From the NCBI GenBank assembly GCA_965248435.1, contig OZ252100.1, positions 5,312,001-5,376,000 on the forward strand: a DNA stretch of 64,000 nt. The letters run 5' to 3'. The position numbers and the translations under genes are program-made. This DNA is from Candidatus Latescibacterota bacterium. Its GTDB lineage: Bacteria > Latescibacterota > UBA2968 > GCA-2709665. The notes beneath the pieces were generated by a model. That model was not told the DNA's origin and did not search any database. It saw nothing but the letters and a program-made list of their open reading frames with translations. This document shows, piece after piece, positions 12,460 to 36,242 of this stretch. The first letter of the stretch is position 1, and every line of letters begins with the position of its first letter.

Positions 12460-13200
12460 GGGTATCTGAACGACATTGGCCTTGCCGATGACGTCACACA
12501 GGAGGCGTTCATTGCGGCCTTTACTGATCTGTCGAGCCTCAGGGAGGCAGACCAGTTCAGGAGCTGGGTCTGTTCAATAGCCATTAACCTCTGCAAAATG
12601 CAATTGCGAAAGCCCAAGATCGAGGAGAACGGCATTGACCCTGACGGGATGCCGGGACTAGACCTCTCTCCAGACGAGGTATACGAACGGGAGGAACGCA
12701 GGCTTCAGATTCTTGGTGTCCTGGACTCCCTGCCGGAAGGAGAAAGGGAGGCTGTCGTCCTCTACTACCTTCTTGGGATGCGTGTGGATTCTGTGAGTGA
12801 ATCACTCGCTATCTCGAAGAACGCCGTGAAAGTCCGCCTGCACCGTGGCCGTCAAAGACTAAGACAGGAGTTGATCGCCATGGATGAGAAATCAGATAAA
12901 GTGGATGTGGAATCCTTCGCGGACTGGTCAAAACTGACAGATGAGGAGATGGTGGCCACGCTCAGGAAGACCTTTACCGAGGATCTCGCGATTGCCCTGG
13001 TGAGGAAAGACAACGCCACACGCCGGGTTCAAGACAAGATCATGCGGAACATTTCAAAGCGTGTTCAAGAAATCATGCAACGCATGATTGAAGAGAGGTC
13101 ACCATCAGAGGCTGAGATTGACAGATCCCGCACGACGATCCTGAAAACTATCCATGAGCTACAGAGTGCAGGCACTATTAGGCCCTCTCTAGTTGACTGA
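12460..13200 (+). pseudogene. 3' part of ECF sigma factor with C-terminal FliG_C-like domain
   Basis: GYLNDIGLADDVTQEAF (region 2), LPEGEREAVVL...VKVRLHRGR (region 4); tail EDLAIAL..KIMRNISKR resembles FliG C-terminus; 5' part at 36138. Confidence 0.8.
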
Positions 13201-13443
13201 CAAGGTTAACCGGCGTCAAATAGTATACCGCCCAGGGGGAATCTCTCTCTGGGCGGCTTGTCTGTTCACTGGCAGGTGGCGGCACGGCTTGTAAAAGCGG
13301 ATTGCCGGCTCGCTTTGTTGACGCTCTTCGCAGGGGGCTGTGAGCTTTTAACCTCCCTCACAATAAGGCTTTTCTGTATATTCCTGAGTGACGCCCTCAA
13401 AGATTTGCCTGGAAAGCAACGCTATGAATATCTATCCGTTTGG

Positions 13444-13606
13444 CCCTACGTGCCTATAATTAGCGAGACACCTCCCCCACAGAAATTAATGAGTAATTGA
13501 GGGCGGAGGAGAGATCAAAGATGAACGGTAACAGCAAAGTCAAGGAGCGTCCGTCGTTGGAGCACCCCGTGCTGAGTGAAGGGAGCTCCAACGAAGCACG
13601 GCCCGA
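13444..13606 (+). mobile_element. IS3-family element B, left-end fragment
   Basis: Identical to 20346-20508. Confidence 0.9.
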
Positions 13607-13646
13607 CTGGCGGGCAGTTGAGCCTAAATATCGGCGAGAGGCGAAC

Positions 13647-16600
13647 ATGGTTGACGGCATATCCAATGCCAGCACGGCTGACATGAACACCGAAAGCTCC
13701 AAATACTCGGCGCCATGTCGAGCCGGCGCAGGCGGAAAGGCGATTGCCACGAGAACTATTTCCCGGCCGAAAATCATCGGCGCAATCTCGCCGCCTCCGT
13801 ACGCTCAATCGAGCCCGCCTAAGCCTGATGTCGAAGGGGCGCAGTCCCCTCCGGCGGCACACAGGGACGATTCTCTCGCTCCCAATCCATCGGCGGGGCT
13901 GGTTACCGAAGACCATCCCCCCAAGCGCCGCCGTGGCGGCTGGGGGCGTGCAGGCGTCCTCGCCGTCGTCGCCTGGCTGGCCTGGCCGACCGCGGCCTTC
14001 GCGCAGGGTATAGGCGTGTATTCCATTGCGAGCAATGACGTGGTCGACGCCTCGGAGAAGTGGGCCGGCTTTACCATCACCGGCGGCACGGGTACGGAAA
14101 GCAGCGTGACTGTCACGGTGAACGTCAACGGCACACAGGTGGGGACCGCAACCTCGGACGCCAGTGGAAATTGGGTGGTGAACGTGGACGGTGATGCGAG
14201 CTTCGTTACCACGACCGTAAGCGGCCAATACGCCGAAGCGACGCGCGGGACTCCTGGCAACCTTGATTTCCTATCGCATCAGAGGTCCTTTACCGCGAAT
14301 CTGAAGCTGCCGCTGGTGGTGAACGCCGTTACGGGCGACGACACGATCAATATTGCGGAGAAGGCGAGCGGCTTCACCATCAGCGGCGACACGGGTACGG
14401 AAAGCGGCGTGACTGTCGATGTGAGCATCGACACGGGGACGCTGAGCACTACCTCGGGCGCCGCGGGGGCTTGGTCGGTGGTCGTGCCGTCCAATGCGAA
14501 CTACATTACCGAAACGAGCGTGGACCTTACGGTGACGGCCACCAAGACCGGTTCTGTCAGCGCGACGGTTACTCGGACGCTGCCGGTGGATTTGACGGCG
14601 CCAACGGTGAGTTACAACACGACGCCATCGAGTCTGAAGGTGGGCGTGGCGATCTCGGCGATGGCTCCGACCACGAGCGATACGGATATTGCTTCCTATG
14701 GCGTCCACGACGATGACTCGCTGCCGCCGGGACTGGCGATCGACGAGAGCACTGGCGTGATCAGCGGCGCGCCGACGACGGCCAACAACAGTACACGGGA
14801 GGTGAGGGTGCTGGCCACCGACGACGCCCGCAACGAAACCACAGAGACGATCACCTTCCCCAAGGTCGACATGGGCGACCAGACGCTGGTTGGGTTCGCA
14901 TACGGCGCGGCGCGAATCAGGTACGGCGATACTGCGCCGAGGGTGACCGAGCCGACCGGCGCCCGGACCCCGGTGACGTATTCGGCGGTGCCTGCGACGG
15001 TGTGCACCGTCAATTCGTTGGGTGCGCTGACGATTAGAGCCGGGGGGACGTGCACGATCACGGCATCGGCCAACGGCGACGCCAACTACAACGCGGCGGC
15101 GGACGTGACCCTTGGCCTGGAGGTGGCCAGGGTGACGGTCGACCCGCCGCCGGAGAGCCTGCCGCCGGAGGGCCTGCCAGTACCGGAGGGCGGCTCGGCC
15201 GGCTACACGGTGGTGCTCGACACCCAGCCGACGCATGACGTCACGATCAACGTGAACCGCCGGGGGTCCGGGGGCGACACGGATCTGACGGCGAGTCCGG
15301 TTGGGTTGACCTTCACGGACTCAAACTGGAACACCCCACAGACGGTGACGCTCTCGGCGGCCGAGGACGACGACGGCGCGCGCGGCATCGTCAATTTTGG
15401 ACACAACGCGGTCAGCGCCGACAGCATCTATGGCGGCATTGGGGCCCCCGCCGTCAAGGCAGTTGAGGACGACAACGACCCGATCGGGGTGACGATCTGG
15501 CCGCAGGTACTGAGGATGCCGGACGGCGGATCGCGGAAATACACAGTGGTTCTCAACACCCAGCCGACGGACGATGTCACGATCACGGTGACCCGGGATC
15601 ACGGGGGTGACGACGACCTGACGGCGGACCCGAATACGTTGATCTTCACGGAGGCAACCTGGTATACGCCGCAGACGGTAACGGTCTCGGCGGCCAAGGA
15701 CGACGACCAGGTGAACGGCGTCGCGATCTTCAGCCACAGCGTGGAAAGCAACGACGAGAACTACCAGTCCGACGATGAAATCACAATCGCTCCGGTAAGG
15801 GTGACCGAGGACGAGACCAGACCGAGGGTAGCGATTCAGACGGAGGCGTCGTCTCCGGTGGGCGGCGCCTTCGAGGTGACGATCCGCTTCTCCGAGTCGG
15901 TGGAAGGCTTTGAACTGGAAGATATCGAGGTGAGCAACGGGACGGCGTCGAATTTCAACAGGGTGTCCTCACGGACCTACACAGTGACGATCACGCCGGA
16001 AGAAACAGGTGAGGTCAGGGTGGAGGTGGGATCGAACGTGGCCCGGGACGGCGTCGGCAACCGCAACCGGGCGGCGGAGCCTCTGGTGATCGAGGCGGAT
16101 CTGGAGCGGCCGGAGGTAACGATCGAAGGGCCGACGGAGCCGGTGGGAATGGCGGTGTTCGAAGTGACGATCACCTTCTCCGAACCAGTGACGGGCTTTG
16201 AGCTTGAAGATATCCGAGTCACTAATGGAACGGCTTCGAACTTTACCAAAGTCTCGCCGCAGGAGTACACGGCGACGATCACGCCCTCTGCGAGCGGCGC
16301 GGTGAAGATGGAGGTTGCGGAGGACGTGGCTCGGGACGGGGGCGGCAACGGCAACCGGGCGGCGGAGCCTCTGGTGATCGAGGCGGATCTGGAGCGGCCG
16401 GAGGTAACGATCGCAGGACCGACGGAGCCGGTGGGAATGGCGGGGTTCGAAGTGACGATCACCTTCTCGGAGCCGGTGGAGGGCTTTGAGCTTGAAGATA
16501 TCCGAGTCACTAATGGAACGGCTTCGAACTTTACCAAAGTCTCGCCGCAGGAGTACACGGCGACGATCACGCCCGAAGGGATCGGTGCAGTGAGGGTGGA

Positions 16601-19600
16601 GGTCCCCAAGGACGTGGCCGAGGACGGGGGCGGCAACGGCAACCGGGCGGCGGAGCCTCTGGTGATCGAGACGGATCTGGAGCGGCCGGAGGTAACGATC
16701 GCAGGACCGACGGAGCCGGTGGGAATGGCGGGGTTCGAAGTGACGATCACCTTCTCGGAGCCGGTGGAGGGCTTTGAGCTTGAAGATATCCGAGTCACCA
16801 ATGGAACGGCTTCGAACTTTACCAAAGTCTCGCCGCAGGAGTACACGGCGACGATCACGCCCGAAGGGATCGGTGCAGTGAGGGTGGAGGTCCCCAAGGA
16901 CGTGGCCGAGGACGGGGCTGGCAACGGCAACCAGGCGGCGGAGCCTCTGGTGATCGAGACGGATCTGGAGCGGCCGGAGGTAACGATCGCAGGACCGACG
17001 GAGCCGGTGGGAATGGCGGGGTTCGAAGTGAGGATCGCCTTCTCGGAGCCGGTGGAGGGCTTTGAGCTTGAAGATATCCGAGTCACCAATGGAACAGCTT
17101 CGAACTTTACCAAAGTCTCGCCGCAGGAGTACACGGCGACGATCACGCCCGAAGGGATCGGTGCAGTGAGGGTGGAGGTCCCCAAGGACGTGGCCGAGGA
17201 CGGGGCTGGCAACGGCAACCAGGCGGCGGAGGCCTTCGAATTGGAGACGAAGCTGGCGGTGAGCTACCAGGAGGAGAGCTACACGGCCAGGGAAGGTGGA
17301 GAGACGGTGACGGTGACGGTGAAGCTGAGCCAGGGCTGGGACGAGGAGCTGGCGATCCCGATCCGGGTGACGCGGCCGGAGACGACGGAAGTCGCCGACT
17401 ATACCCTAGATGGTTTGCAGGAGTGGGATGCCCAGGAGGGCGCCGGGACGCTCACCTTCCCAGCCGAGGAAACGGAACAGACGTTTAGGATTGCAGCCAA
17501 CCATGACGGGGACGGGGACGACGAGACCTTGAAGCTGGGATTTGGGGAACTGCCGGAGATCGTACTGACAGGTGAGCCGGGCGTGGCGACAGTGATGCTG
17601 GAGGACAAAGGACTGGTGGAGCTGAAGGTGAGCTTTGGGCAGGCGGAGTACCAGATTAGGGAAGGCCAGCAGGCCGACATCGAGGTGAAGGTGGCGCCGA
17701 CGGCGGATCGGCGGGTGGAAGTACCGCTGGTGGTGAGCTTGAAAGGAGGGGCGAGCGAGGCCGACTACAGTGGGGTACCGGTGTCGTTGGTGATCGAGGA
17801 AGGCGAGAGTGAGGGGACGATTTCCGTGGAGGTGCTGGCGGATGAAGTGAACGATCCTGGGGAGGGGATTGTGCTGAGCTTTGGAGAGTTGCCGGAGGCG
17901 GTCAGTGAAGGAGAAATCCCGCAGACAACAGTGAACTTCAGGCAGCGGCGCACGGCGGAGCAGTTCTCGCAAACGCTGGAGGTGGCGCTGGCGGTGATGG
18001 CGCGGTCGATGGGGGAGAGTGTGCAGACGGCCATTGAGGGTCGCTTTGAGCGGCATCGGCAGTGGAGTCGGCTGGGGGCAGCCGGAGGAGCGGTGTCGAC
18101 AGCGCAGCCGGGAAGCGACAATAGCGCCACGGGTCTGGGTGAGGGAGAATCGCAGCGGATAGACAGCGAGAGCCTCGAGGACGCCGGCAGGCGAAGAGCT
18201 GAAGGCCCGGTAGTGCCGAGCGCTGGGGGCGGGGCCGGGGGCCGAGCAGTGATGGGATCGAGTGGGGAGTTGGGAGACCGGGAAAGTGACGTGCAAGGAG
18301 CGTGGCTGCAGAACGTCTCGCTGGGTGGATTAGCGGGCCTGTTCGGCTACGGCCAGGGCGATGCGGGCGTCTCGACCGGCTCCAGCATGGGGCCGAGTGG
18401 GACCGGCCCGACTGTCGGGTTGGGAGGGCAGCCAGGTCACGGTCAGAATCGATTCCAGGGTGCGGGGACCAGGAACTCGTCGCTGAGATCGGGATCGGGC
18501 GAGTACTCGGGGAGGAGGAATCGAGAGCTCAACCTTGCGGGAGTGTCCTTGGAGCTGCCCTTGGCAGGACAGCAGAAGGGGACGAGCAGGAGCTGGGTAC
18601 CGGCGTTGTGGGGGCAAGGGGACCTGCAGCACTTCAACGGGAACCTGGCGCGGTACGAGATGAGCTATCGAGGAGGTCTCGAGGCCGCCCATGTGGCGCT
18701 GGACCTCTATGCCAACGACAAGGTGCTGACCGGGCTGTCGTTCATGCGCAGCTGGGGGAACATGGATTACAGCGACGATGGGATCGATGGGGTGTTGAGG
18801 AGTCGCATGAGCACGTTTCATCCCTATCTGTACTGGCAGCCGACGGAACGGGTGAGCGTGTGGGGCATAGGAGGCTTGGGACGAGGGCGAGTGGACGTCA
18901 ACGAGCCGGGGAGGAGTCACGACTTCGAGGCTGACTTTCGGATGTTCGCCGGGGGATTGAGGACGGTGCTGACGCGGCGAGGCAGCAATGAGTTGGGGCT
19001 GCGGGCGGACGCCTTCTCGGCGCAACTGAGGACCGAAGCCTCCGAAGACATCGCGAAGGTGCGAGGTGAGGCCCACCTGGCGCGGTTGATGCTGGAGTGG
19101 GTGCACACCAAGCAGCTGTCAGTGGGGCGATCCCTGAGCCTGAAGGCGGAGGCCGGCGGGCGTTTCGACGGGGGCGATGCGGAACGGGGCAGCGGCGCGG
19201 AAACAGGATTCCGTCTGGGGTATCTGGATGCGAACAGTGGACTGGACGTGGCCATGTATGGCCGGGTGCTGATGGTGCACACAAGCGACTACCGGGACTG
19301 GGGATTGGGGGTACAGGCGAGCTGGGACCCGGGCGAGAAGCAGCGCGGGTTCCGAGTGTCGGTGACCTCCACGCGGGGCCAGGACGGCGGCGGGCGAACG
19401 ACGCTGTGGAACAACGCTAATATGGTCACGCGCCCAGCGGGGATGGGGGCGATGGGGCTGAGCTCCCAGTACCGGATGGAAAGCGAGGTGGCCTACGGCG
19501 GCCTGAAGGCGCCGGGCGTACCGGGTCTGCTGACGCCCTATAGCCGGCTGCGATGGGCCGGACAGGGTCGGGAGCTGGCCTGGGGGACCGCTTGGAGCCT

Positions 19601-19718
19601 GCCTCCACGCTCGCAGCTGGCGCCGCCATTGATGTTGGAAACGGAAGCCATGAGACGGGAAAGCGCAACAGGTCCGGCTGATCTAGCGGTGCTGGTGCGA
19701 ATGTCGATCCCCTTCTGA
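13647..19718 (+). CDS. Giant Ig-like/Calx-beta repeat surface protein with C-terminal autotransporter-like barrel (true start uncertain)
   Basis: Signal-like RRRGGWGRAGVLAVVAWLAWPTAAFAQ; LPPGLAID..TGVISGAP putative Ig; LTFT..NWNTPQTVT; five 96-aa Ig repeats; barrel-like C-terminus ending in Phe. Confidence 0.8.
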   Translation: MVDGISNASTADMNTESSKYSAPCRAGAGGKAIATRTISRPKIIGAISPPPYAQSSPPKPDVEGAQSPPAAHRDDSLAPNPSAGLVTEDHPPKRRRGGWGRAGVLAVVAWLAWPTAAFAQGIGVYSIASNDVVDASEKWAGFTITGGTGTESSVTVTVNVNGTQVGTATSDASGNWVVNVDGDASFVTTTVSGQYAEATRGTPGNLDFLSHQRSFTANLKLPLVVNAVTGDDTINIAEKASGFTISGDTGTESGVTVDVSIDTGTLSTTSGAAGAWSVVVPSNANYITETSVDLTVTATKTGSVSATVTRTLPVDLTAPTVSYNTTPSSLKVGVAISAMAPTTSDTDIASYGVHDDDSLPPGLAIDESTGVISGAPTTANNSTREVRVLATDDARNETTETITFPKVDMGDQTLVGFAYGAARIRYGDTAPRVTEPTGARTPVTYSAVPATVCTVNSLGALTIRAGGTCTITASANGDANYNAAADVTLGLEVARVTVDPPPESLPPEGLPVPEGGSAGYTVVLDTQPTHDVTINVNRRGSGGDTDLTASPVGLTFTDSNWNTPQTVTLSAAEDDDGARGIVNFGHNAVSADSIYGGIGAPAVKAVEDDNDPIGVTIWPQVLRMPDGGSRKYTVVLNTQPTDDVTITVTRDHGGDDDLTADPNTLIFTEATWYTPQTVTVSAAKDDDQVNGVAIFSHSVESNDENYQSDDEITIAPVRVTEDETRPRVAIQTEASSPVGGAFEVTIRFSESVEGFELEDIEVSNGTASNFNRVSSRTYTVTITPEETGEVRVEVGSNVARDGVGNRNRAAEPLVIEADLERPEVTIEGPTEPVGMAVFEVTITFSEPVTGFELEDIRVTNGTASNFTKVSPQEYTATITPSASGAVKMEVAEDVARDGGGNGNRAAEPLVIEADLERPEVTIAGPTEPVGMAGFEVTITFSEPVEGFELEDIRVTNGTASNFTKVSPQEYTATITPEGIGAVRVEVPKDVAEDGGGNGNRAAEPLVIETDLERPEVTIAGPTEPVGMAGFEVTITFSEPVEGFELEDIRVTNGTASNFTKVSPQEYTATITPEGIGAVRVEVPKDVAEDGAGNGNQAAEPLVIETDLERPEVTIAGPTEPVGMAGFEVRIAFSEPVEGFELEDIRVTNGTASNFTKVSPQEYTATITPEGIGAVRVEVPKDVAEDGAGNGNQAAEAFELETKLAVSYQEESYTAREGGETVTVTVKLSQGWDEELAIPIRVTRPETTEVADYTLDGLQEWDAQEGAGTLTFPAEETEQTFRIAANHDGDGDDETLKLGFGELPEIVLTGEPGVATVMLEDKGLVELKVSFGQAEYQIREGQQADIEVKVAPTADRRVEVPLVVSLKGGASEADYSGVPVSLVIEEGESEGTISVEVLADEVNDPGEGIVLSFGELPEAVSEGEIPQTTVNFRQRRTAEQFSQTLEVALAVMARSMGESVQTAIEGRFERHRQWSRLGAAGGAVSTAQPGSDNSATGLGEGESQRIDSESLEDAGRRRAEGPVVPSAGGGAGGRAVMGSSGELGDRESDVQGAWLQNVSLGGLAGLFGYGQGDAGVSTGSSMGPSGTGPTVGLGGQPGHGQNRFQGAGTRNSSLRSGSGEYSGRRNRELNLAGVSLELPLAGQQKGTSRSWVPALWGQGDLQHFNGNLARYEMSYRGGLEAAHVALDLYANDKVLTGLSFMRSWGNMDYSDDGIDGVLRSRMSTFHPYLYWQPTERVSVWGIGGLGRGRVDVNEPGRSHDFEADFRMFAGGLRTVLTRRGSNELGLRADAFSAQLRTEASEDIAKVRGEAHLARLMLEWVHTKQLSVGRSLSLKAEAGGRFDGGDAERGSGAETGFRLGYLDANSGLDVAMYGRVLMVHTSDYRDWGLGVQASWDPGEKQRGFRVSVTSTRGQDGGGRTTLWNNANMVTRPAGMGAMGLSSQYRMESEVAYGGLKAPGVPGLLTPYSRLRWAGQGRELAWGTAWSLPPRSQLAPPLMLETEAMRRESATGPADLAVLVRMSIPF
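15819..17240 (+). repeat. Intragenic 288-bp (96-aa) tandem repeats, ~5 units
   Basis: CTCTGGTGATCGAG recurs at 16081, 16369, 16657, 16945; last three units nearly identical. Confidence 0.95.
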
Positions 19719-20345: not shown

Positions 20346-21819
20346 CCCTACGTGCCTATAATTAGCGAGACACCTCCCCCACAGAAATTAATGAGTAATT
20401 GAGGGCGGAGGAGAGATCAAAGATGAACGGTAACAGCAAAGTCAAGGAGCGTCCGTCGTTGGAGCACCCCGTGCTGAGTGAAGGGAGCTCCAACGAAGCA
20501 CGGCCCGATGCAGAGGTTCCGGAGAAAGCTAAGCGACGTCATTTCAGCGCCGCGTATAAGCTGCGGATCGTCGAAGAGGCCGACGCCTGCCGACAGCCAG
20601 GCGAGGTTGGGGCATTGCTGCGACGGGAAGGTCTTTATTCCTCGCTTCTGACAGAATGGCGACGCGCTCGTCGTGAGGGGGCTCTGGGGACACTCTCGAA
20701 GGAGCGTGGCCCGAAAGGGCGCCGACGTGACCCCGTAGCCCGGGAGAACGAGCAACTGCGCAAAGAGAACGCCCGGCTACGGCGACGTCTGGAACAGGCA
20801 GAGAAGATCCTGGAGATCCAAAAAAAAGCCTCGGAGATCCTGGGAATCCCCCTGAACCGGCCCGAGAACGGAGACGACGAATGAGGGCAACTGCCGAACA
20901 ATTGGCGCCGGTGGTGGGGGTGGCAGCGGCCTGCCGTGCACTGGATGTAGCACGGGCGTCTCTCTACCGCCACCGAAAGTCCCCTTGTGTCTCTCCGCCC
21001 CGGCCGCGACAACCCTCCTCACGCAGCTTGACGACTCCGGAGCGGGCCCAGGTGCTGAAAACGCTTCACGAGGAACGGTTCGTAGACCGCGCTCCAGCGG
21101 CCGTGTATGCGACCCTGCTGGAGGAAGGGCGCTACCTGTGCTCGATTCGAACCATGTACCGCGTGCTGGCAGCGGTCGCAGAAGTGAAGGAACGCCGCAG
21201 GCAGCGCCGTCACACGCATCGAGAACCGCCGCAATGGGTGGCAACCGCCCCCAACCAGGTCTGGACCTGGGACATCACCCGACTGCCCGGTCCGCGGAAG
21301 TGGACAACCTTCGCCCTCTACGTTGTCCTGGATCTGTTCTCGCGCTACGTCGTCGCGTGGATGGTGGCTTTGCGGGAGACAGCAGCCCTGGCCAAACGGC
21401 TGGTGCAGGGCGCTTGTCAGAAGCAGGACATCCAGCCTGGACAGCTCACGCTGCACCAGGACCGCGGTGGCCCAATGACGGCCAAGACGTTCTCCCAACT
21501 CCTGGTGGATCTCGACATTCTGGCCAGCTACAGCCGACCCCGAATATCCGACGACAACCCGTACTCAGAAAGCCACTTCAAGACCCTGAAATACGCACCG
21601 GCTTATCCCGGGGGTTTTTCCAAACCGGAAGAGGCGCGGTCATACTTCCGAGTCTTCTTCCCCTGGTACAACACCCAGCACCGACACAGCGGACTCGGCC
21701 TGTTCACGCCCGAAGCTGTGCACTACAACCGCGCCGGGGATCTTTAAGCGGCCAGGCAACAGGTTCTGGACGATGCCTACCTGCGACATCCTGAACGCTT
21801 CGTCAACCATCCGCCCCAG
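20346..21819 (+). mobile_element. IS3-family element B, lacking right end
   Basis: OrfA 20423-20884, OrfB 20881-21747 (WTWDIT, HQDRG, DNPYSES); OrfB stops early (TAA where the 36.4 kb copy has CAA). Confidence 0.9.
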
Positions 21820-21948: not shown

Positions 21949-22764
21949 TCAGCCCAAGATAGGACCACCCGCAATCGAATCATCACACCTTCCACAGGTA
22001 ACATTCTCACAGTGGGTTATATAGGGATCTTCCTGGATGGCCTGCGTTGCAGCTTCCAATGCGTCTGAGGCGGGGTAGGCCAGCCACCTGCTATTTCCAA
22101 CACTTCCTTCCCTCACAAATGGAGACATCACCGATTCAAACTTGAGAAAACCACCAGAACACCCCCCTGCCTCCACTGCTAGGGGCTGGCCATCTGGGCC
22201 GTTGGCCCACCTCCTGAAAAGAACCCGACCAGCTTTCTTCTCCGCCAGATGAATCAGAGTCATTTTAGTCGGATCGACTCCAGCCAGAAGCACATATCCT
22301 TCGACAGAAGCCAGAGCGTCCAGAGGAGCGTAGACGTCATCCGCCTTTTGCCCCTTAAGCAGTTGATCCGCCAACGGGCCCATCGCTGAAAAAGAACAGA
22401 CCGGATGGTTTCCTCTTCGACTTTCATTCCGTTTTACCACGGCTGCGGAGATCGCTCCCATGTCCTCGTCAATTTCCGTGCTCGTCTCTGGATTGAAGAT
22501 ACATTTCACGTTGTTCCGGGTCCGAGCAAGGTACTCGTAGTCGGCAGCATTGCGTCGGAATTGGAGATGCACAGGCGGGGAAACAGAGTATGCCCAACTG
22601 AAAGAAGGCACTAACAGGGTGCACCCTCCAAAGAGAAACGCGTCAACTACCGCCGATGCACCCCCCTCAACTCTTCCGAAGGAACTCAGAGATCAGTGCA
22701 GACAAACGGACTGGCCCTCAAGCTGCAGCTCGCGGATTCCGCCTCGGATCTCATCAAGTGTCAC
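21949..22764 (-). pseudogene. Aminoglycoside 3-N-acetyltransferase (AAC(3)/YokD family) with in-frame stop
   Basis: VCLH*SLSSFG (TGA at 22693-22695 replaces Ser), HPVCSFSAMG, MTLIHLAE motifs. Confidence 0.8.
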
Positions 22765-22993: not shown

Positions 22994-23913
22994 TTACTTC
23001 TCAAACATAGCTCTGTATTCTGGAATCATCCAGTCCCGATTGGTGAAATCGGGGAGACTGTTTCGGCGGAACAAATCCAGCAGGTAAAGGCATTGATCCT
23101 TTCGAATGCTTTTAGCGAGATTTGGGCCATACGATGCCCCGCCGAAGTGAAGCACACCCCGGCTGGAGGTCAGATAGACCATCTCGTGGGTAGTCATCAC
23201 AGCTGTCATCAGACCCATGGTGTCATAGTAGCCCGCGCCCTCCAAGGTGTCTTCATACATCCAGGCGCAGCTAAAACCTATACGATCAGCTACACGACGA
23301 AAAACCTCCGAGTTCTTGACCAAAGTGCAACACGGCAAACACCGTGGATGGTTCGTGCCCACCATTGTAGCCAAAGGCTCTCCAGTGTCCTCTGGAGTTG
23401 GAGCAAACAGGTTTCTTAGATTAGGTGATGAAGGTACAACTTATTCTTCTGAGCACGCTCTTTGGACCGGTATTGCGAAAGGTCCTGAGTAAGAACATTC
23501 CTATCGCCATGAAATAGACTCAAGCTGTCTGGATCTTCATTGGCTTGAATCGCCCACGTTTCCTCTCGGTCTTCGATCTCCAGAATCATTTGGTCGATCG
23601 TATCCGACATCACAAAGCAAATATCGGAGTCGAGAAGGAGGTAGTAATCACAATCGGGGTCATCCATCACGAACTGTCGAAGAACCTCACCGTGCGAGTT
23701 GGCCTGTCTCCCCTCGGCCTCCCAGCCGCTTTGTCTGAACTCAATTCCGACGCTTTCGGCGTAATCCTTTAGATCCTCCGTTCGCTCTGTGGACGAATTG
23801 TCCATGATGACGAACTTCAGATCACTACGCGCACTGTGCATGGCGAAGTAGGATCTGGCCGCCAGCTCGGTGAAACCGGAACTGTTGTGATTGATGATAA
23901 CCGCGTTGATCAT
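22994..23913 (-). pseudogene. Family 2 glycosyltransferase-like cassette gene, split
   Basis: IMDNSS and LLLDSDI motifs in 23416-23913; second part 22994-23374 in another frame. Confidence 0.65.
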
Positions 23914-23965
23914 CGAACTAGAGGTCCTGATTGTCTACTCTGTTATCAGGAAAGGCTGGCATTTC

Positions 23966-24051
23966 CTATAACGTTTCCGGCACCCACGAACCTGCCGAGC
24001 GGGGTTGGGCGAAGGTGCGGGTGCACCGAGCGGCGCACGGTCGTGTTAGCG
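23966..24051 (-). repeat. attC-like site
   Basis: Minus strand CGCTAAC...GGCAGGTTCGTGGGTGCCGGAAACGTTATAG; same family as 22833-22920. Confidence 0.85.
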
Positions 24052-24246
24052 GAAGTCGCTCTAAGGGTAGTATCGTTCGGATTAGGTCGGGGGCACAGAA
24101 ACAGCTCGACATACCACCATCCTGTTAGCAATATACGGAATCTGTACACCTTAGACCTTAGGTTCGCCACCCTCCTTGTAGAGGGCCTTCCCGCAAAGTC
24201 CCGCAGGGAATTCAATGCTAAGCCCGTTATTGGAGAGGTTTTCAGG

Positions 24247-26163
24247 ATGGACCTCATTTCAACAGTTGAGAAGGCCCAGGCAGGGGATCTGGAGGCCTTT
24301 GATTCTCTCGTACGACGCTTTCAGGATATGGCGGTTGGGTACGCGTACTCCTTGTTGGGCGACTTTCATCTTGCAGAAGATGCTGCGCAGGAAGCCTTCT
24401 TGGGAGCCTACACGAACCTGCCTCAGCTGCGTACTCCAGCTGCTTTCGTCACATGGTTCCGTCAGATCCTCTTTCGCCAGTGCCGGCGGCACAATCGCAG
24501 ACGAAGCCTCGATACCGTCTCGATTGGCTCGACGCCTGAGCTTGCTGCGGAAGCCCCGCATCCTGACCAAATTGCCGAGCAGTTGGACTTGCGCGACAGG
24601 ATTCTTGATCTGATCAGCGGCCTGCCAGAGCAGGAGGCGCAGTCGATTACCCTCTTCTACATCAGCGATTACTCACAAGCGGAGGTAGCGGCATTTCTCG
24701 GTGTATCCATAGACACCGTTAAGAACCGTCTCCGCTCAGCGCGTGGCAAACTGAAGGAAAGGATGTTAACAATGGCCAAACAGACCTTACGCGAAGAAGC
24801 TCCCTCCAAGGACGACTCGTTTGCCACTGTCGTAAGCCTTTGTAATGCTGCCCAAGCAGGTGACAGCGACCGCGTGAAGCAACTACTGGAGACACATCCC
24901 CAACTGGCAAAGCGAACGATCAGCCAATACGGGCAGATGGCGATTCAGTTTGCGGCACGGGAAGGCCATGCCGACGTCGTCCAGCTTCTGCTCAAGGCTG
25001 GAGCAGATCCGACATCAGGTATCTATCCGAACCGGTCGGCAACAAGTGCGCTGTCATTCGCACACGATCGGGGTCACGGCGCTGTGGTCAAAGTGATCGA
25101 AGATTTCCAAGCGGCTCACCCGCCCAAAACCGGTGAATCGCGTGCTGAAGATGGTCTTCTGACGGCTATTAAGGAAGAAGCCGTGGAAGCCGTGCGAACG
25201 ATGCTGGAAGCGAACCCGACACTCGCGCGCCACCCGTCGCGTCCTCTGACAAAAGCCGCAGCCATCGGCAATCTCGACATCGTGCGCTTGCTGCTCGACC
25301 ACGGCGCCGACCCAGACGATCCCTCCGACCTCGACCTAGGTGACGAAGGGACACTCAGAAATGCTGGCGAACCGCTGTGGAAGGCGGCTCAAGGGAACCA
25401 CTACGATGTGTGCAGGCTGCTGCTCGAGTGCGGCGCTGATCCGAGCGCTTATGTCTTCGCATCGGGGCCGGCGGCCGAAAGGGCAATAGAGAGTGGATAC
25501 GATGACATCCTTAGCCTCATCTACCGGTTCGGTGGAGCCGGGTTCGCGGATTGTGCGGCCCTGTCTGGTCAGATCGCTGTTCCTGCGGAGGTTTTGCATC
25601 TCCAGCCCGAGAAGGCCCCGCGTATGCTCTGGGGTGCTGCTCTTGGCGGCAACGTAGACCTTGCCGCTGTATGCTTCAAGTACGATCTGGAATCGGCAGA
25701 CTGGTTCGACCTGCTGTATCAGCCTCTCAGGGGTCGGAGAGGCCAGGCACGCTTGCGATATGCTGATGAGTCACGAGACGAACTGGCGGATAAGGTTGAG
25801 ATCTTAAGGATGATGCTGGAGCACGGTGCGTACCCAAACGTGCACGGCGAGGGAAATCAGAGCCTGCTGCATCGACTGCTTGGTGAGACGGGCCTTTGGA
25901 AAGATGAAGAGAAGAAGCCATTCGCAGAGCTGCTCCTCGACTTCGGCGCGGACATCGACGCCAGAGATGACGAACTGATGTCTACGCCGTTGGGGTATGC
26001 AGCACGCTTTGGTCACGCTGCAATGGTCCGTCTCCTGCTGGAACACGGTGCCCGAACCAACCTCCCGGGCGGCGAGCCCTGGGCGACGCCTTTAGCTTGG
26101 GCGGAAAAGATGGGGCACGAGGAGATCGCTGAAGTACTGAGGAATCACGGCGCAGAAGAATAG
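24247..26163 (+). CDS. ECF sigma-70 factor fused to ankyrin repeats
   Basis: AEDAAQEAF region 2, TVKNRLRSAR region 4; multiple ankyrin motifs (AAREGHADVVQLLLKAGAD, TPLGYAARFGH); GGAGAGG RBS. Confidence 0.9.
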   Translation: MDLISTVEKAQAGDLEAFDSLVRRFQDMAVGYAYSLLGDFHLAEDAAQEAFLGAYTNLPQLRTPAAFVTWFRQILFRQCRRHNRRRSLDTVSIGSTPELAAEAPHPDQIAEQLDLRDRILDLISGLPEQEAQSITLFYISDYSQAEVAAFLGVSIDTVKNRLRSARGKLKERMLTMAKQTLREEAPSKDDSFATVVSLCNAAQAGDSDRVKQLLETHPQLAKRTISQYGQMAIQFAAREGHADVVQLLLKAGADPTSGIYPNRSATSALSFAHDRGHGAVVKVIEDFQAAHPPKTGESRAEDGLLTAIKEEAVEAVRTMLEANPTLARHPSRPLTKAAAIGNLDIVRLLLDHGADPDDPSDLDLGDEGTLRNAGEPLWKAAQGNHYDVCRLLLECGADPSAYVFASGPAAERAIESGYDDILSLIYRFGGAGFADCAALSGQIAVPAEVLHLQPEKAPRMLWGAALGGNVDLAAVCFKYDLESADWFDLLYQPLRGRRGQARLRYADESRDELADKVEILRMMLEHGAYPNVHGEGNQSLLHRLLGETGLWKDEEKKPFAELLLDFGADIDARDDELMSTPLGYAARFGHAAMVRLLLEHGARTNLPGGEPWATPLAWAEKMGHEEIAEVLRNHGAEE

Positions 26164-29079: not shown

Positions 29080-29100
29080 GTGCTATCCTTGCAGTGTTGC

Positions 29101-30222: not shown

Positions 30223-30291
30223 TTCCCAGTCAAGGTCGTAGAGGATACCTCGAGTCGAATCTCCGTCTACATCGCTCCCGGGACGCCATTC

Positions 30292-30777: not shown

Positions 30778-30822
30778 TGAAGCGTTCTTCGTGAATGCGC
30801 GACAATACAAAGGATTTTGTCT

Positions 30823-31386: not shown

Positions 31387-31415
31387 TAAAATCCAACAGC
31401 TGAGTAGGATCAAAT

Positions 31416-32219
31416 ATGATTCCGATGCACGAGGCCAATCGTCGAATCTGGGATGAGCAGGCCACAACGTGGGAAGACCGCCTCAATCGCAGCGATCGGT
31501 GGCGAAGGTGTCACAAGGAACCGGAATTGGCTTTTGAGGGCGCGACTCTAGAGACAATTCGAGAGATGGTTGGAGATCTCTGCGGCAAGCAGGTGTGCAT
31601 CATTGGCAGTGGAGATAACCTCGCGGCCTACGCCCTCGCAGGGTTAGGGGCAGAGGTGATTTCGACAGACATCTCTGAGCAGCGATTGAACCTGGCCGCG
31701 GGCCGGGCTGAGCAGCTCGGTTTGTCGATCGATTTTGTTCGTGCGGATGCTGCATCTCTAGAGTTCGCAGGCGACTCGACCTTTGATCTTGTTTGCTCCA
31801 CGAATGGCTTTTTTGTATGGATTGCTGATGTCGCTGCAGTTTTCCGCGAAGTGTCGAGAATACTGAAGCCGGGAGGAGCCTACGTTTTCTACGACATCCA
31901 TCCGTTCATGCGCCCGTGGAAAGATCAAGAAAAGCCTATTGAAATGGAGAAGCCTTACTGGGAGACCGGACCATTTCGAGTGTCGGAGGAGGAATCTTAC
32001 GAATTTAATTGGACTTTGTCCGACTTGCTGAATCCGCTCTGCGAAGCAGGCTTAACGATAAGAAGGATTGTTGAGAGTCCTGCCGAAGATTCTGGCTTCT
32101 GGGAGGGCAGTCACTACAAGGCAGGGACAGATGAAACTCTGGCAGACTGGAAATCGAACCCTCGTGCCGGTTTACCGGTGTGGCTAACCGTCGCCGCCTC
32201 AAATGCAAAATGCAAATAG
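31416..32219 (+). CDS. Class I SAM-dependent methyltransferase
   Basis: IIGSGD, TDIS, FDLV, RILKPGG. Confidence 0.85.
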   Translation: MIPMHEANRRIWDEQATTWEDRLNRSDRWRRCHKEPELAFEGATLETIREMVGDLCGKQVCIIGSGDNLAAYALAGLGAEVISTDISEQRLNLAAGRAEQLGLSIDFVRADAASLEFAGDSTFDLVCSTNGFFVWIADVAAVFREVSRILKPGGAYVFYDIHPFMRPWKDQEKPIEMEKPYWETGPFRVSEEESYEFNWTLSDLLNPLCEAGLTIRRIVESPAEDSGFWEGSHYKAGTDETLADWKSNPRAGLPVWLTVAASNAKCK

Positions 32220-32228
32220 GATCACCTT

Positions 32229-32993
32229 GTGTCGTATCGGCCTATCACACTCGACAAGAAGCCCGACCTCGAAGACCAGATCCACCGCCTAAGCATCGCT
32301 TCGTGGCCCGAATTCCTTCGCCACACCAATATTCTCTACTGGCATCTCCTTTTCGAGCAATTTGCTGAGTTTCAGCTGGTCCTGTGCGACGCCTCGCAGG
32401 ATGTGATTGCGGTCGGCCACACGTTGCCCCTCGTATGGGATGAGTCGCTCGCGGATTTGCCCCCTGACCTCCACACGATTTTCGTCCGCGCGAAAGAGGT
32501 GGTGGAACGCCAACAGACCGCAACAGCGCTCTCGGCCTTGGCAGTGATGGTAGCACCCGCTCACCGACGAAAAGGGCACAGCAGAACGATGGTGCAGGCA
32601 ATGGCAGACATGGCGGCCGAACGCGGATTGAGCGCGCTCATCGCCCCTGTGCGACCTACCTTGAAGGCCTCCTATCAGCTTACACCCTTCGAGACATATC
32701 TAGGCTGGACTCGGGAAGATGGGTCGCCGTTTGATCCCTGGGTTCGGGTCCACTGGCGTCTGGGAGCTGAAAGGCTGAAGGTGATTCCCAAGGGAGTAGT
32801 GGTTACTGGCACAATAGCCGAGTGGGAGGCGTGGACCGGGTTGCAGTTTCCAGAAAGTGGTTCTTACATTGTGTCAGGGGCGTTGCAGCCAGTAGAAATA
32901 GATCGTGAACGGGATCGGGGATGCTATGCCGATCCTAATGTTTGGATGCGGCATCCTGTAGGCGAGGATCGTCAAATTCGTGTAGGTGATTGA
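32229..32993 (+). CDS. GNAT-family N-acetyltransferase
   Basis: VAPAHRRKGHS acetyl-CoA motif; APVRP and DPWVRVHWRLG. Confidence 0.8.
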   Translation: MSYRPITLDKKPDLEDQIHRLSIASWPEFLRHTNILYWHLLFEQFAEFQLVLCDASQDVIAVGHTLPLVWDESLADLPPDLHTIFVRAKEVVERQQTATALSALAVMVAPAHRRKGHSRTMVQAMADMAAERGLSALIAPVRPTLKASYQLTPFETYLGWTREDGSPFDPWVRVHWRLGAERLKVIPKGVVVTGTIAEWEAWTGLQFPESGSYIVSGALQPVEIDRERDRGCYADPNVWMRHPVGEDRQIRVGD

Positions 32994-33987
32994 TGCGTGT
33001 GCTTCTGCTTGGTGGAACCGGGCTCAGTGGACCCTTTGTCGCGCGAGAATTACAGAACAGTGGCCATGAGGTAGTGGTCTATCATCGTGGGGAGCACGAG
33101 AGCCCGTATATGCCAGATTGTGAGCATATTCACGGTGACAGGAGAAATCGTGAAGCGTTCAGAGAAGAGCTGAAGAAGATCAAGGCAGATGCTGTCATTG
33201 ATATGCATAGGTATGATTGATGCCGACTCTGAGCCAGTGATTGAGGCTTTCAGAGGTCGAATCAAGGCATCTGTGCACATCAGTTCCGGTGATGTCTATG
33301 CAGAATTCGGGGAAACACAGATTTCAGAAGATGCTCCCCTTAGACAACCCCCATCTTACGAGGAGGAGCCTCGGGACTACGACAAGGTTTTGATGGAGAG
33401 GGCAGTGCTAGGGGCTTGTCAAGAAGGGGACTTTCCCGCAACGGTAATCCGGTATCCAGTAATTTACGGTCCAGGCAGATTAGGTGGGTATCGCGAATGG
33501 CCTCTGATTAAGCGGGTCCTCGATGGGAGAGACGCCTTACCCCTCCCAGGGAAGGCGTTTCGAATACCAGCTGCTCGAGGGTACCACAAGAATCTAGCAG
33601 CAGGTGTCGTATCAGCTCTGGAGTCGGATGTGGCTGTGGGTAAGGCCTACTAATCTCGCCGATGTGGAGTGTCAAACGCTTCCCGAGATAGCCGAGGGGA
33701 TAGCGAAGATCTTGGGTCACGAATGGGAGATCATCGAAATACCAGACGACGTTTGGGAGGGAAATATCTATAGCGGGCCGCTCGGTCAATACGATCTTTC
33801 TCGTGCTACAAGGGATCTGGGCCTCCGTGACGTTGTGGCCGTAGAAGAAGCACTCAAGGAAACCGTCCTCTGGCAGCTTGAGAACCCGCCGGAACCGAAC
33901 GAGACCTGGAAAATCACAGTAGATGAGGAGGCGTACCAGATAGAGGAAGGACTGTTTGCCAAGGTACCGCGGGCTGCCAAGAAGTGA
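32993..33987 (+). pseudogene. NAD-dependent epimerase/dehydratase, frameshifted
   Basis: LLGGTGLSG, ISSGDVY, YDK; split over three ORFs. Confidence 0.8.
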
Positions 33988-34017
33988 ATACGCTCCTATA
34001 AGACGGAGGTATTGAAA

Positions 34018-34458
34018 ATGCCTTTCGAACCCAGGATTAGCATCATTACGCTCGGTGTAAGTGATATGGCAACGTCGATCAGGTTCTATAGGGACGGGCT
34101 TGGCTTTCCGACATCTGCTAAAGACGACGCAGGATGGGCGCTCTTTGAAACCAGCGGTACTCGCTTTTCGCTTTATCCCTACGATCACCTGGCCAAGGAT
34201 ATTTCGCCAGCTACGGAGGGACTTAGGAGCGGATTCGGCGGAATCACTCTGGCTCACAACACAAGAATGCGTGAAGACGTAGATGAAGTCCTCAGCATCG
34301 CTGAGGGCGCCGGAGGGAAGATACTCAAGCCTCCGCGGGAATCATCCTGGGGCGGTTACAGCGGGTATTTTGCAGATCCCGACGGATACCCGTGGGAGGT
34401 GGCCTGGGGTCCAATGTTCGAAATCAGAGATGATGGCACACTCGTATTGAACCAATAG
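34018..34458 (+). CDS. VOC/glyoxalase family protein
   Basis: ITLGVSD..FY, WGGYSGYFADPDGYPWEVAW. Confidence 0.9.
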   Translation: MPFEPRISIITLGVSDMATSIRFYRDGLGFPTSAKDDAGWALFETSGTRFSLYPYDHLAKDISPATEGLRSGFGGITLAHNTRMREDVDEVLSIAEGAGGKILKPPRESSWGGYSGYFADPDGYPWEVAWGPMFEIRDDGTLVLNQ

Positions 34459-34508
34459 TTCCGTGGGTCGGGCAGCAAAGTATGAATGGGATGAATCATT
34501 GACCAGCC

Positions 34509-35438
34509 ATGATGAAACCGACACTTACGTTCGCAGGAGATGAGGGGGACTCTTGGGTCTATAGATTTGGCGAACTCATTCTCAAGACGGACAAACTGGA
34601 TCGACCTGACCGCAACAGAGTCATCGCTTTGGGAGCGGCTTGTGGAATCCAGATGGAACACATGGTCCGTCACCCGGAACTGGTCCACGGCAAGAAAATC
34701 TTGGAGCCATTTTCGGGATCAGGCCCACTGGGGATTGTTGCTCTGTCGCTGGGCGCTGAGAAGGTCACCTTCGTAGACATCAATTCCAGGGCAATGGACC
34801 TTCTTTTGAGGAATGTTAAGAGAAACAACCTCCCCTCAGACAGAATTACCACGGCTATCACAGATTTCAGCAGCTTTCAGACTTCTGGTAGGTTTGATGC
34901 GATCTTCGCCAACCCACCTTTCGTCGCCACCCCTGAAGGTGTTGTTGGAGCCCTGCACTCCGAGGCTGGGGTGGATGGAAACGGTCCTGCTGAGCAACTA
35001 CTGAACAAGCTTCCAGCGTTGCTTGAGAAAGACGGTCAGGCATTCTTGTATCTGATTCAAATCGAGAGCGAGGGCATCCCGACAATCCTGACAACTGTCG
35101 AGTCGTGCTTGCCCCGGAGGCCTGTCGAGCTAACCAAAGGATTTCGAGAGTCAAAGGCATTCGAAGAGCTTGTCAGTACATACGAAGAGTCATTGTCACA
35201 CAAAACCGAGCAAATTGAAGCATGGGCGAGCAAGCTGAGAGACCGTTTCGGGCGCAATTTAACGATAAACCATTATATGATCCACATAGATGCTGAATCT
35301 CAGAGTAGCGGCTCCACAATCAGAGATTACGATGGCGCCAAATACGGGGAAGGTTATTTTCGACGATTCAACCTGAAAGCCACTGCACTTGAGAACTTCG
35401 TGCAATCAGATAAAGGCTCGGTTGAAGAGTTTGAATAG
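34509..35438 (+). CDS. SAM-dependent methyltransferase (NPPF type)
   Basis: EPFSGSG, VDIN, FANPPF. Confidence 0.85.
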   Translation: MMKPTLTFAGDEGDSWVYRFGELILKTDKLDRPDRNRVIALGAACGIQMEHMVRHPELVHGKKILEPFSGSGPLGIVALSLGAEKVTFVDINSRAMDLLLRNVKRNNLPSDRITTAITDFSSFQTSGRFDAIFANPPFVATPEGVVGALHSEAGVDGNGPAEQLLNKLPALLEKDGQAFLYLIQIESEGIPTILTTVESCLPRRPVELTKGFRESKAFEELVSTYEESLSHKTEQIEAWASKLRDRFGRNLTINHYMIHIDAESQSSGSTIRDYDGAKYGEGYFRRFNLKATALENFVQSDKGSVEEFE

Positions 35439-35460
35439 GATGAGTTAAGGAAGCACTTAA

Positions 35461-36062
35461 ATGACAGATGATAAAATGGTGCTAGTTGGCGCGGCCTTTC
35501 CAAGGACAGGAACAATGTCTGTAAAGCAGTAGGCCGCTGCTACCACATGCACGAGGTGTTCCTCAACCCTGAGCATATTGAAATCTGGGATGCTACCTGC
35601 GATGGAAAAATGCCGGATTGGAGGGCACTTCTCTCCGGGTATGCGGCCACACTCGACGCGCCAGCCTGTTTGTACTGGAGGGAACTTGCTAATTGCTTTC
35701 CTAGCGCCAAGGCGCTCCTGATCAGACGCGATCCAGAGAGTTGGTATGAAAGCATGCTTTCCACGACATACCAAGTTGTGATGGGACCAAAGGGAGAGAC
35801 TGAGCGGGCATTGGCAATGGTGAAGCGCGTTCTTTTCAAAGGCTATTTCAAGGGTCGATTCGAGGATAAGGAATACGCGATATCAAAGTACCGCCAATAC
35901 TGCAAAGAGGTTAGGGAAAGCATCAGTGAGGAACGACTGCTCGACTACGAGGTTTCACAAGGATGGGACCCTCTATGCGAGTTACTAGATTACGGCGTTC
36001 CAGATGAGCCATTCCCAATGAAGAACACGAGAGAGAGGTTTCAGGCAAGAAATCGATTGTGA
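35461..36062 (+). pseudogene. Sulfotransferase-family protein, broken near N-terminus
   Basis: GAAFPRTGTMSVK then stop; CYHMHEV, RDPESWYES, GWDPLC..PFP..N. Confidence 0.75.
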
Positions 36063-36137
36063 GGGCAAAACGACATGTAACCAAATCCGCCCAGTCCGCA
36101 TCCTATATTGTGAAGGCCTTCAACAAGCGGAGAGCTG

Positions 36138-36242
36138 ATGAACGACAAGGTTTTTGTGACTAGGTCGCTTGAGGGCGATACAGATGCCTTCGGCACCCTA
36201 GTGAAGCGCCACTATAGCACTGTGCGCGGGCTGGCAGCGGGG
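36138..36242 (+). pseudogene. 5' part of the ECF sigma-FliG_C gene
   Basis: MNDKVFVTRSLEGDTDAFGTLVKRHYSTVRGLAAG joins in frame to GYLNDIG at 12460 via shared GGG. Confidence 0.85.

Follow-up and report, generated by a model that had tools for sequence, protein, structure and literature searches.

The 64,000-nucleotide (nt) stretch of DNA analysed here, referred to as the window, comes from a Candidatus Latescibacterota bacterium (assembly GCA_965248435.1, contig OZ252100.1, forward strand, positions 5,312,001 to 5,376,000) and contains a sigma factor gene in two pieces, each adjoining a fragment of an insertion sequence (IS). The 5′ piece (A half, 36138–36242, plus strand) holds codons 1–35, reaching the start of sigma region 2, and ends in GGG at 36240–36242. 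The 3′ piece (B half, 12460–13200, plus strand) begins with a second GGG at 12460–12462 and ends with a stop codon at 13198–13200. Within it, on the same strand, Pfam places the rest of region 2 at 12463–12612, region 4 at 12703–12861 and the C-terminal domain of the flagellar rotor protein FliG (FliG_C) at 12913–13179. The A half translates into 35 amino acids (aa), MNDKVF...RGLAAG (full reading MNDKVFVTRSLEGDTDAFGTLVKRHYSTVRGLAAG), and the B half into 246 aa and a stop, GYLNDIGL...RPSLVD (reading GYLNDIGLADDV...AGTIRPSLVD).

An earlier note on this DNA proposed that the two pieces join in frame through the duplicated GGG, each abutting the matching IS end, to give a protein of about 281 aa. 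The coordinates and translations agree with this join, and only the length needs adjustment. Compared with P0004, an intact homologue of 280 aa from another assembly, the A half corresponds to residues 1–35 (34 of 35 identical) and the B half to residues 35–280 without gaps (218 of 246 identical, 89%). The halves overlap on P0004 at the single residue Gly35; as they meet at one glycine codon, the restored protein is 280 aa long. A second intact homologue is encoded in the same genome: P0003, a paralogue of 280 aa at C1:960119–959280, reads RGLATGYLKD (RGLATGYLKDIGL) across the break, and its locus shares 88.8% nt identity with the A half side over 36074–36242. Both halves thus match the same homologues, P0004 and P0003, rather than different ones, and the window copy is the broken one of two, with P0003 as the intact copy elsewhere in the genome. 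We regard it as close to certain that the window holds an IS-split sigma–FliG_C pseudogene. What the earlier note said of the split stands; it made no mention of the pseudogene status and the intact paralogue, of the MotA-derived domain found in most relatives, or of a published model for the capture of such domains.

Inside the B half, the source annotation seems to place an open reading frame (ORF) of 200 aa, P0005 (12598–13200, plus strand), which takes in region 4 and FliG_C as well as the last part of region 2. P0005 would be a sigma4–FliG_C fragment if IS-borne transcription or read-through led to its expression.

Remnants of the interrupting element

The interrupting IS is represented by four fragments. 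The B half is preceded by the first 535 nt of the element (11925–12459, minus strand), with the terminal repeat at the junction, and this fragment is 99.8–100% identical to 20346–20880. The A half is followed by the last 328 nt (36243–36570, minus strand), with the terminal inverted repeat adjoining the gene; 202 nt of this fragment match positions 1273–1474 of the copy at 20346–21819 with 99% identity. That copy (plus strand) is the largest, covers IS positions 1–1474 with the right end absent, and contains ORFs with HTH_Tnp_1 (20399–20884) and rve (20881–21747) domains. The remaining fragment, the first 163 nt, lies at 13444–13606 (plus strand); it is 100% identical to 20346–20508 and complementary to 12297–12459. 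The B half is bracketed by two inverted IS left ends, 11925–12459 and 13444–13606.

When the two ends of the element were read inward, 22 of the first 31 columns were identical. The HTH_Tnp_1 and rve ORFs, the terminal inverted repeats and the 3-bp GGG target duplication are those of the IS3 family. The earlier note treated these sequences as an element, IS3-B; a blastn search against all 5.67 Mb of the genome found no complete copy, only the four fragments, all of them in the window, and we have corrected the description to that extent.

An IS3-family element inserted at codon 35, and the 3-bp GGG duplication is its trace. IS-linked rearrangements later shortened the element and parted the halves, so that the 3′ half now lies 24 kb upstream of the 5′ half, both on one strand. 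The outer flanks of the truncated IS pieces, 8500–11924 and 36571–37129, are unique in the genome. Window positions 12459–41676 share eight paralogous segments, 83–99% identical, with C1:941821–983019. The order 3′ sigma part, segment 1, segment 2 is common to the window and the paralogue locus, and in the window the A half sits after segment 2, 18 nt beyond it. No single event separating the halves could be derived: the B half and segments 1 and 2 are collinear with the paralogue locus, but the A half comes after segment 2. The separation needs at least two IS-mediated events.

Alternatively, the 24-kb split might be an artefact of assembly, the gene in the cell being intact or interrupted by one complete IS. 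The region is indeed dense in repeats, with four fragments of the interrupting IS and four copies of another. However, the IS pieces beside the halves are partial (535 and 328 nt) and run into sequence that is unique in the genome, which is not expected of a collapsed repeat. Between 92 and 99% of the sampled 31-mers of 35950–36650, a stretch that includes both A-side junctions, were present in four sequencing runs of one sample, and in all four of four runs a contig covers 12430–12758 without a difference, with only 30 letters on the IS side, one fewer than needed to count as bridging the junction. This read support is not independent, since a single sample, probably that used for the assembly, supplied all runs. 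The runs listed as holding 31-mers of 35950–36650 included no RNA runs. We consider an assembly artefact very improbable.

The other repeated IS is a second IS3-family element (HTH_Tnp_1 and rve) of 1.25 kb, located in the window at 2189–3440, 5844–7093, 37130–38380 and 54855–56105. These are four of six copies in the genome, 99.7–99.8% identical, and an extra 56-nt copy of one end lies at 38426–38481. Two ORFs border on fragments of the first IS. One of 2073 aa (13497–19718, plus strand) has Big_12, He_PIG and Calx-beta domains and five 288-nt tandem repeats (15870–17321); its start has probably been lost, since on the 5′ side the frame extends into the IS fragment at 13444–13606. The other, of 220 aa (21949–22611, minus strand), has an aminoglycoside 3-N-acetyltransferase (Antibiotic_NAT) domain and lies just past the truncated IS copy. 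Both the window and the paralogue region are rich in genes for small modifying enzymes, among them methyltransferases, acetyltransferases, NUDIX, HIT, glyoxalase and sulfotransferase proteins.

Sigma core, FliG-type tail and conserved cassette

The product of the split gene is an extracytoplasmic function (ECF, group 4) sigma factor with regions 2 and 4. In the B half, Pfam matched Sigma70_r2 with E 6e-9 and Sigma70_r4_2 with E 1.1e-13, both above cut-off, and the scan listed no match to region 3 or region 1.1. P0003 scored 98 bits against the NCBIfam sigma70-ECF superfamily model TIGR02937 (cut-off 42.9), and all 24 specific NCBIfam sigma models shown for it stayed below cut-off, the best being PRK05602 with 101 bits against 208. 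The AlphaFold2 (AF2) model of P0003 superposes on SigW, sigmaE and AlgU. About 100 aa follow region 4, which exceeds the 50 aa taken to define an ECF extension. Neither a SnoaL nor a TPR domain matched this tail at E≤10 in Pfam, which sets the protein apart from ECF41 and ECF42. Among the neighbours of P0003 (HIT, DUF4037-like and GFA; one locus, Pfam only) no anti-sigma domain was found.

The tail is the C-terminal six-helix domain of FliG, which forms the stator-facing part of the flagellar rotor. Pfam FliG_C (PF01706) matched the tail of the B half with E 2.6e-10 and 41 bits, over profile positions 20–106 of 108 and against a cut-off of 23.3, so that all three domains (Sigma70_r2, Sigma70_r4_2 and FliG_C) exceed their cut-offs in the profile search that the earlier note had called for. 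In a genome scan with FliG_C, the window copy scored 43.4 bits and the paralogue 43.0 bits. When the last 101 residues were compared with PDB sequences, the C-domain of T. maritima FliG, 1qc7, was matched with E 2.4e-6, and the matches listed with an aligned stretch were all FliG. An MgtE_N domain was considered for the tail and rejected; there was no MgtE_N match at E≤10, and no aligned PDB match other than FliG.

The fold leads to the same assignment. The AF2 model of P0003, built from a 15-sequence alignment (pLDDT 81.9, pTM 0.41), has six helices at 187–271. Residues 185–276 superpose on 3usw with Z 15.3 and a root-mean-square deviation (rmsd) of 1.3 Å over 89 residues, on 4fhr_B with Z 15.0 and 1.7 Å over 91, on 1qc7_B with Z 14.2 and 1.5 Å over 88, and on 8ucs_H, FliG bound to MotAB, with Z 13.1 and 1.6 Å over 87. 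The structure 1lkv is also among these FliG C-domain superpositions, which overall span Z 13.1–15.3, rmsd 1.3–1.7 Å and 87–91 residues. An ESM Atlas look-up of the tail led to FliG_C clusters (0.91). The parallel between the tail and the FliG C-domain drawn in the earlier note is thus borne out by both Pfam and fold. The start of the domain coincides with the hinge that precedes helix 1 in the last domain of FliG. Pfam found no FliG_N or FliG_M in the split gene, and the sigma core replaces the N-terminal two thirds of FliG.

Comparison of the broken copy with the paralogue gave a Ks of 0.23 and a Ka/Ks of 0.151 in the tail, against 0.163 in the sigma part. Purifying selection has acted on the tail as strongly as on the sigma core, and the gene was disrupted recently in relation to its duplication. 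The similarity of the two loci spans only about 1.02 kb, starting abruptly at CATGTAACC (window 36074) and ending about 110 nt past the stop codon. This unit is a self-contained cassette consisting of an ECF-type promoter motif, the gene and a terminator. The motif TGTAACC-N15-GCATC(C), which the earlier note had placed at about 36076, is present at 36076–36102 (plus strand), 36 nt upstream of the ATG, and is kept in the paralogue; it is a putative promoter. A GGAGAG ribosome-binding site lies inside the conserved cassette. A terminator-like hairpin at 13228–13256 (plus strand), 28 nt past the stop, has 13 pairs (9 of them G-C) followed by a T-rich tail and is also kept downstream of the paralogue. 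No sigma-70-type promoter was found in 35900–36300. The layout of the putative promoter looks like that of an autoregulated ECF gene. In a genome scan for TGTAACC-N14-17-GCATC, five matches were obtained, of which two are the paralogues, and about 2.3 were expected from shuffles. One of the matches lies within an HD-domain ORF, about 420 nt before a sigma–FliM gene.

Relatives of the fusion and the MotA-derived domain

A word-indexed search of 5.8 billion proteins gave 81 matches, only three of which carry FliG_C: P0004, P0006 and the window's own P0005. An exhaustive HMMER search of 1.84 billion representatives yielded 15 proteins at E≤1e-30. A Pfam scan of 22 top or long-matching representatives identified region 2, region 4 and FliG_C together in 18, several of them with two or three copies of FliG_C. 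The short form of the protein, which ends without a MotA-like domain, also occurs in clusters 47–53% identical to P0003 (P0086 and P0089) with invariant tail positions. We conclude that the sigma–FliG_C architecture is real, rare and conserved.

A profile search of the phylum placed the full-length fusion in 6 of 168 genomes (G000, which is the genome studied here, G037, G039, G041, G063 and G065) among the matches listed; 691 weaker matches lie beyond these, so that diverged members may be missed. By full-length profile matches, the fusion was not found in the only other genome of the same genus. The earlier note had asked whether the fusion co-occurs with flagellar genes. FliG_N, which marks canonical FliG, is present in 70 of the 168 genomes and in all six that carry the fusion, a co-occurrence that is suggestive only, because the six genomes represent about three independent lineages. 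The genome studied here is flagellated, with 8 flagellin_N, 5 FliM and 8 FliG_C places and one flagellar MotA.

Several further FliG-type genes were seen in these genomes. Two FliG_C matches of identical score about 1.5 kb apart (C1:2545895–2546911 and 2548049–2548372), each in a 339-aa frame, look like a tandem fliG duplicate, and a third fliG lies at C1:4870976–4872001. The relatives that carry the fusion have 5–18 FliG_N matches per genome. At G037:C2:4972093–4972395 (plus strand) a 127-aa frame matches only the tail of the family profile (positions 183–283, 132.6 bits); it could represent either a tail that stands alone or a further broken copy.

In a search for related loci, nearly all of the best 50, a set too limited to show the distribution, match the sigma core only. 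Those that reach into the tail are L066, from Gemmataceae (query 16–274, 22% identity), and L042, from Spirochaetales (18–238). Judged by ORF listing alone, the loci of five relatives (L079–L083, ±1.5 kb) have no neighbour genes in common.

Longer relatives carry, after FliG_C, about 90 residues resembling the MotA of this genome. One or two such membrane-less MotA(cyt)-like domains, which derive from the part of MotA that faces the rotor, stand behind FliG_C in 28 of 42 sigma–FliG_C proteins, and the other 14 have none. The 42 are what remains of 53 gathered FliG_C-like proteins after 11 fragments or proteins without a sigma core (P0001, P0005, P0097, P0234, P0237–P0240, P0243, P0246 and P0247) were left out; members of the same cluster are included, so the counts are not independent. 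One FliG_C–MotA(cyt) cluster is named Latescibacterota.

In this genome, the MotA(cyt)-like domain was found only in MotA itself and in P0234, a soluble, sigma-less protein of 232 aa (C1:2513189–2513884, minus strand) with a canonical FliG_C domain at residues 5–97 (82.8 bits). Residues 144–192 of P0234 are 53% identical to residues 81–129 of this genome's MotA (E 2e-13), and residues 200–224 are 60% identical to 212–236 (E 2e-7). NCBIfam MotA models match P0234 133–197 with E 1.6e-15, under the whole-protein cut-off. The tail of P0234 joins the cytoplasmic loop of MotA to its C-terminal tail, with the two membrane helices between them omitted. This assignment rests on sequence, since the match in fold, described below, is weak. 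In P0220 (421 aa), a sigma core seems to stand in front of a P0234-like part.

To place these proteins by their sigma cores, we used a FastTree phylogeny of 333 cores, a biased sample made up of hits to P0003 and P0233, from which P0001, P0002, P0005 and proteins without a near-complete N-terminal core were left out. The 41 FliG_C-bearing proteins on this tree formed pure clades of 12, 9, 2, 10 and 5 proteins and three singles, and the pure clades of 5–12 proteins had support of 89–100. The clade of the window gene (P0003, P0004, P0086, P0241 and P0242; support 100) consists entirely of short forms.

FliG_C is one of many extensions on related sigma cores. P0233 (385 aa; C1:956158–957315, plus strand), about 2 kb from P0003, joins an ECF sigma core to a FliM-type domain (31.3 bits, cut-off 27), and a second sigma–FliM fusion, P0235 (383 aa; C1:946970–948118, plus strand), lies about 11 kb from P0003, 9 kb beyond P0233. 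The best 120 rows of a search with P0233 included 27 sigma–FliM and 19 sigma–FliG_C proteins, with Poribacteria, Planctomycetota, Phycisphaerae, Armatimonadetes and Thermodesulfobacteriota among the source names. Other extensions found by this search on the same sigma clade, with cores 50–60% identical, were histidine-kinase, ankyrin, PheRS-core, T2SSF, PilM, Lon-N, citrate-synthase and Rho domains. P0004 and the sigma–FliM protein P0253 are each reported from a 50,582-nt contig. Between the two halves of the split gene, the window contains a 775-aa ORF (23836–26163, plus strand) with ECF regions 2 and 4 at residues 158–308 followed by ankyrin repeats, another case of a sigma factor with a captured domain. 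P0007, P0008 and P0010 are ECF sigma factors with cores 37–39% identical and a C-terminal PF02577 ('bifunctional nuclease') domain, a further unusual extension. A different combination was seen at C1:31623–33338 (plus strand), outside any flagellar cluster, where a 571-aa protein has FliG_M and FliG_C, a hydrophobic stretch and a C-terminal part of about 230 aa without a Pfam hit; it is organised like a membrane anti-sigma factor in which FliG stands where the anti-sigma domain would be.

Possible function and comparison with known systems

Like the earlier note, which took the sigma factor to be regulated by its rotor-derived domain or to dock through it, we infer a docking or regulatory role for the tail, in the manner of other ECF C-terminal extensions without a neighbouring anti-sigma gene; a MotA-type domain is the probable partner. 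The ancestral partner would be the cytoplasmic domain of a MotA-type protein, since two thirds of the relatives that were gathered have one right behind FliG_C. For the short form, the partner would act in trans and could be the soluble P0234 or the stator protein MotA; by holding or releasing the sigma factor, it would make transcription from the TGTAACC-N15-GCATCC promoter, including at least autoregulation, follow the state of motor components. Docking in trans on a MotA-type domain is ranked first among the explanations because, across the family, the two sides of the rotor–stator contact have stayed together, and we put it forward tentatively, as a possibility open to doubt. Taken as a whole, in a blend of our confidence in the IS-split pseudogene and that in trans docking of its tail, this explanation comes a little short of an even chance.

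Several observations weigh against such docking. The clade of the window gene has no MotA-like domain, and the genes for P0234 and MotA are unlinked to the sigma gene, that for P0234 lying among purine-biosynthesis and housekeeping genes. The tail of P0234 fits solved MotA chains weakly (Z 5.6–5.8, rmsd 5.5–6.1 Å). In real FliG, the torque helix has an arginine and, 7–8 residues on, an acidic pair (DE in T. maritima; EE in the FliG of this genome); these residues correspond to R281, D288 and D289 of E. coli FliG, which contact R90 and E98 of MotA. The window copy keeps the arginine (that of the 'SKR' motif) but has R,M at the acidic pair, and the corresponding residues are H,M in P0003, G,F in P0004, Q,F in P0086 and N,F in P0089. 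As the pair is replaced, the canonical charge contact to MotA has probably been lost in the short-form clade. The genome scan for the promoter motif revealed no regulon, the three matches other than the paralogues lying inside ORFs and at chance level. The co-occurrence with flagella rests on about three independent lineages. On the sigma-core tree, the FliG_C extension needs at least eight changes of state, a pattern that promiscuous domain capture would explain no less well than function, and here too the sample is biased.

The loss of the acidic pair and of the MotA-like domain from the short-form clade favours another reading, in which the tail would work only in cis, folding back on sigma2 and sigma4 as an on/off switch like that described for extensions of the ECF41/ECF42 type, with FliG_C serving as a helical scaffold and no flagellar partner. 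The main text of a survey of ECF groups reports that C-terminal extensions correlate with the absence of an anti-sigma factor and are thought to contact core ECF regions (Casas-Pastor et al. 2021, PMC7826278), and the neighbours of P0003 include no anti-sigma domain. In the AF2 model, however, the placement of the tail on the sigma core is of low confidence (pTM 0.41 at a pLDDT of 81.9), which is weak evidence against a cis switch. An interface inherited from the motor is indicated by the MotA-derived domain that 28 of the 42 relatives keep beside FliG_C, and the fusion was found only in genomes with canonical FliG (6 of 6). We rank a purely cis-acting tail second, as only a little less probable than docking in trans.

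The at least eight state changes would be accounted for equally if the tail were a passenger, acquired when a duplicated sigma2–sigma4 segment was inserted, in frame, into a gene like fliG or that for P0234, whose 3′ portion came along without a specific role. P0220, which looks like a sigma core joined to a P0234-like protein, and the variety of domains in the related sigma clade, from FliM and FliG_C to ankyrin and Rho, agree with such an event, and an origin of this kind has been proposed for diverse extensions in the main text of Pinto and da Fonseca (2020, NAR Genom Bioinform 2:lqz026, PMC7671368). Capture accounts for the origin of the tail but not for its retention: a tail Ka/Ks of 0.15, the same as that of the sigma core, disfavours a passenger. 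The short form moreover persists in the P0086 and P0089 clusters, at 47–53% identity with invariant tail positions, and FliG_C forms well-supported pure clades of 5–12 proteins (89–100). We rank fortuitous capture without a role third, as improbable.

Returning to docking on a MotA-type domain, a broader form of this proposal is that these proteins constitute an ECF class gated by a copy of the flagellar rotor–stator interface, in which MotA(cyt) would act in cis in the long forms and be supplied in trans by the stator or P0234 in the short forms, so that transcription would read stator availability or engagement. We regard this broader form as rather unlikely; if true, it would couple gene expression directly to the state of the motor, and, taken with the sigma–FliM fusions and the FliG_M/C–transmembrane protein, it would mean that interfaces of the motor have found a second use as sigma/anti-sigma pairs. 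Among sigma factors, ECF proteins with a fused extension count as the 'one-component systems', and the kind of extension indicates which signal is sensed. If the FliG_C/MotA pair still binds, it would offer a soluble, ready-made model of the rotor–stator contact. It would also be a candidate for the means by which the condition of the motor (stator pool, load or assembly) acts on transcription, a connection of which little is understood so far. Without binding, the family would be a clear and datable example of captured gene fragments fixed as regulatory domains. As the window gene is dead, its intact twin P0003 is the copy worth studying.

Full-text literature searches found no description of a sigma–FliG or sigma–MotA fusion, and as far as searched this gene type is apparently undescribed in print. 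The closest known proteins are ECF sigma factors that carry a C-terminal extension; the main text of Casas-Pastor et al. (2021, PMC7826278) counts 19 such groups and places extensions second in frequency among the ways in which ECFs are regulated. The extensions described there are SnoaL-like (ECF41, ECF56, ECF294, ECF295 and ECF205), TPR (ECF42), Cys-rich (ECF238), DUF1835 and transmembrane. The protein of the window resembles these in its sigma2–sigma4 core, in an extension of more than 50 aa and in the lack of a recognisable adjacent anti-sigma gene, and differs in that the extension is FliG_C. FliG and FliM are mentioned neither in the main text and one supplementary file of that survey, whose other supplements might list them, nor in an ECF review (PMC8999054).

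A second parallel is provided by the Planctomycetes, in which, according to the main text of Pinto and da Fonseca (PMC7671368), a duplicated sigma2–sigma4 segment is proposed to enter another gene, whose 3′ part then becomes the extension. The main text of that paper does not name FliG or FliM, and in the part of one supplement that was covered 'flig' occurs only as letters of protein sequences. The Planctomycetes clade combines a conserved sigma core with many unrelated C-terminal Pfam domains, as seen in the P0233 search, whereas the window gene belongs to a different sigma subclade, all members of which are short forms. Capture is a plausible origin for sigma–FliG_C, with P0220 as an example.

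To the C-domain of FliG itself (PF01706; 1QC7/1LKV; 8UCS), the tail is alike in sequence, in its six-helix fold, in its start at the hinge position and in the arginine of 'SKR'. The protein of the window differs from FliG in that the acidic pair is replaced, the domain is fused to a transcription factor and FliG_N and FliG_M are absent, so that the usual route into the C ring is missing.

In the FlgM/sigma-28 checkpoint, FliA (sigma-28), a group 3 sigma factor, is held by a separate anti-sigma factor that is secreted. The likeness to the sigma–FliG_C proteins is confined to one respect, that the availability of a sigma factor would be tied to the flagellar apparatus, and implies no homology; here, by contrast, the rotor domain is part of the group 4 sigma factor itself.

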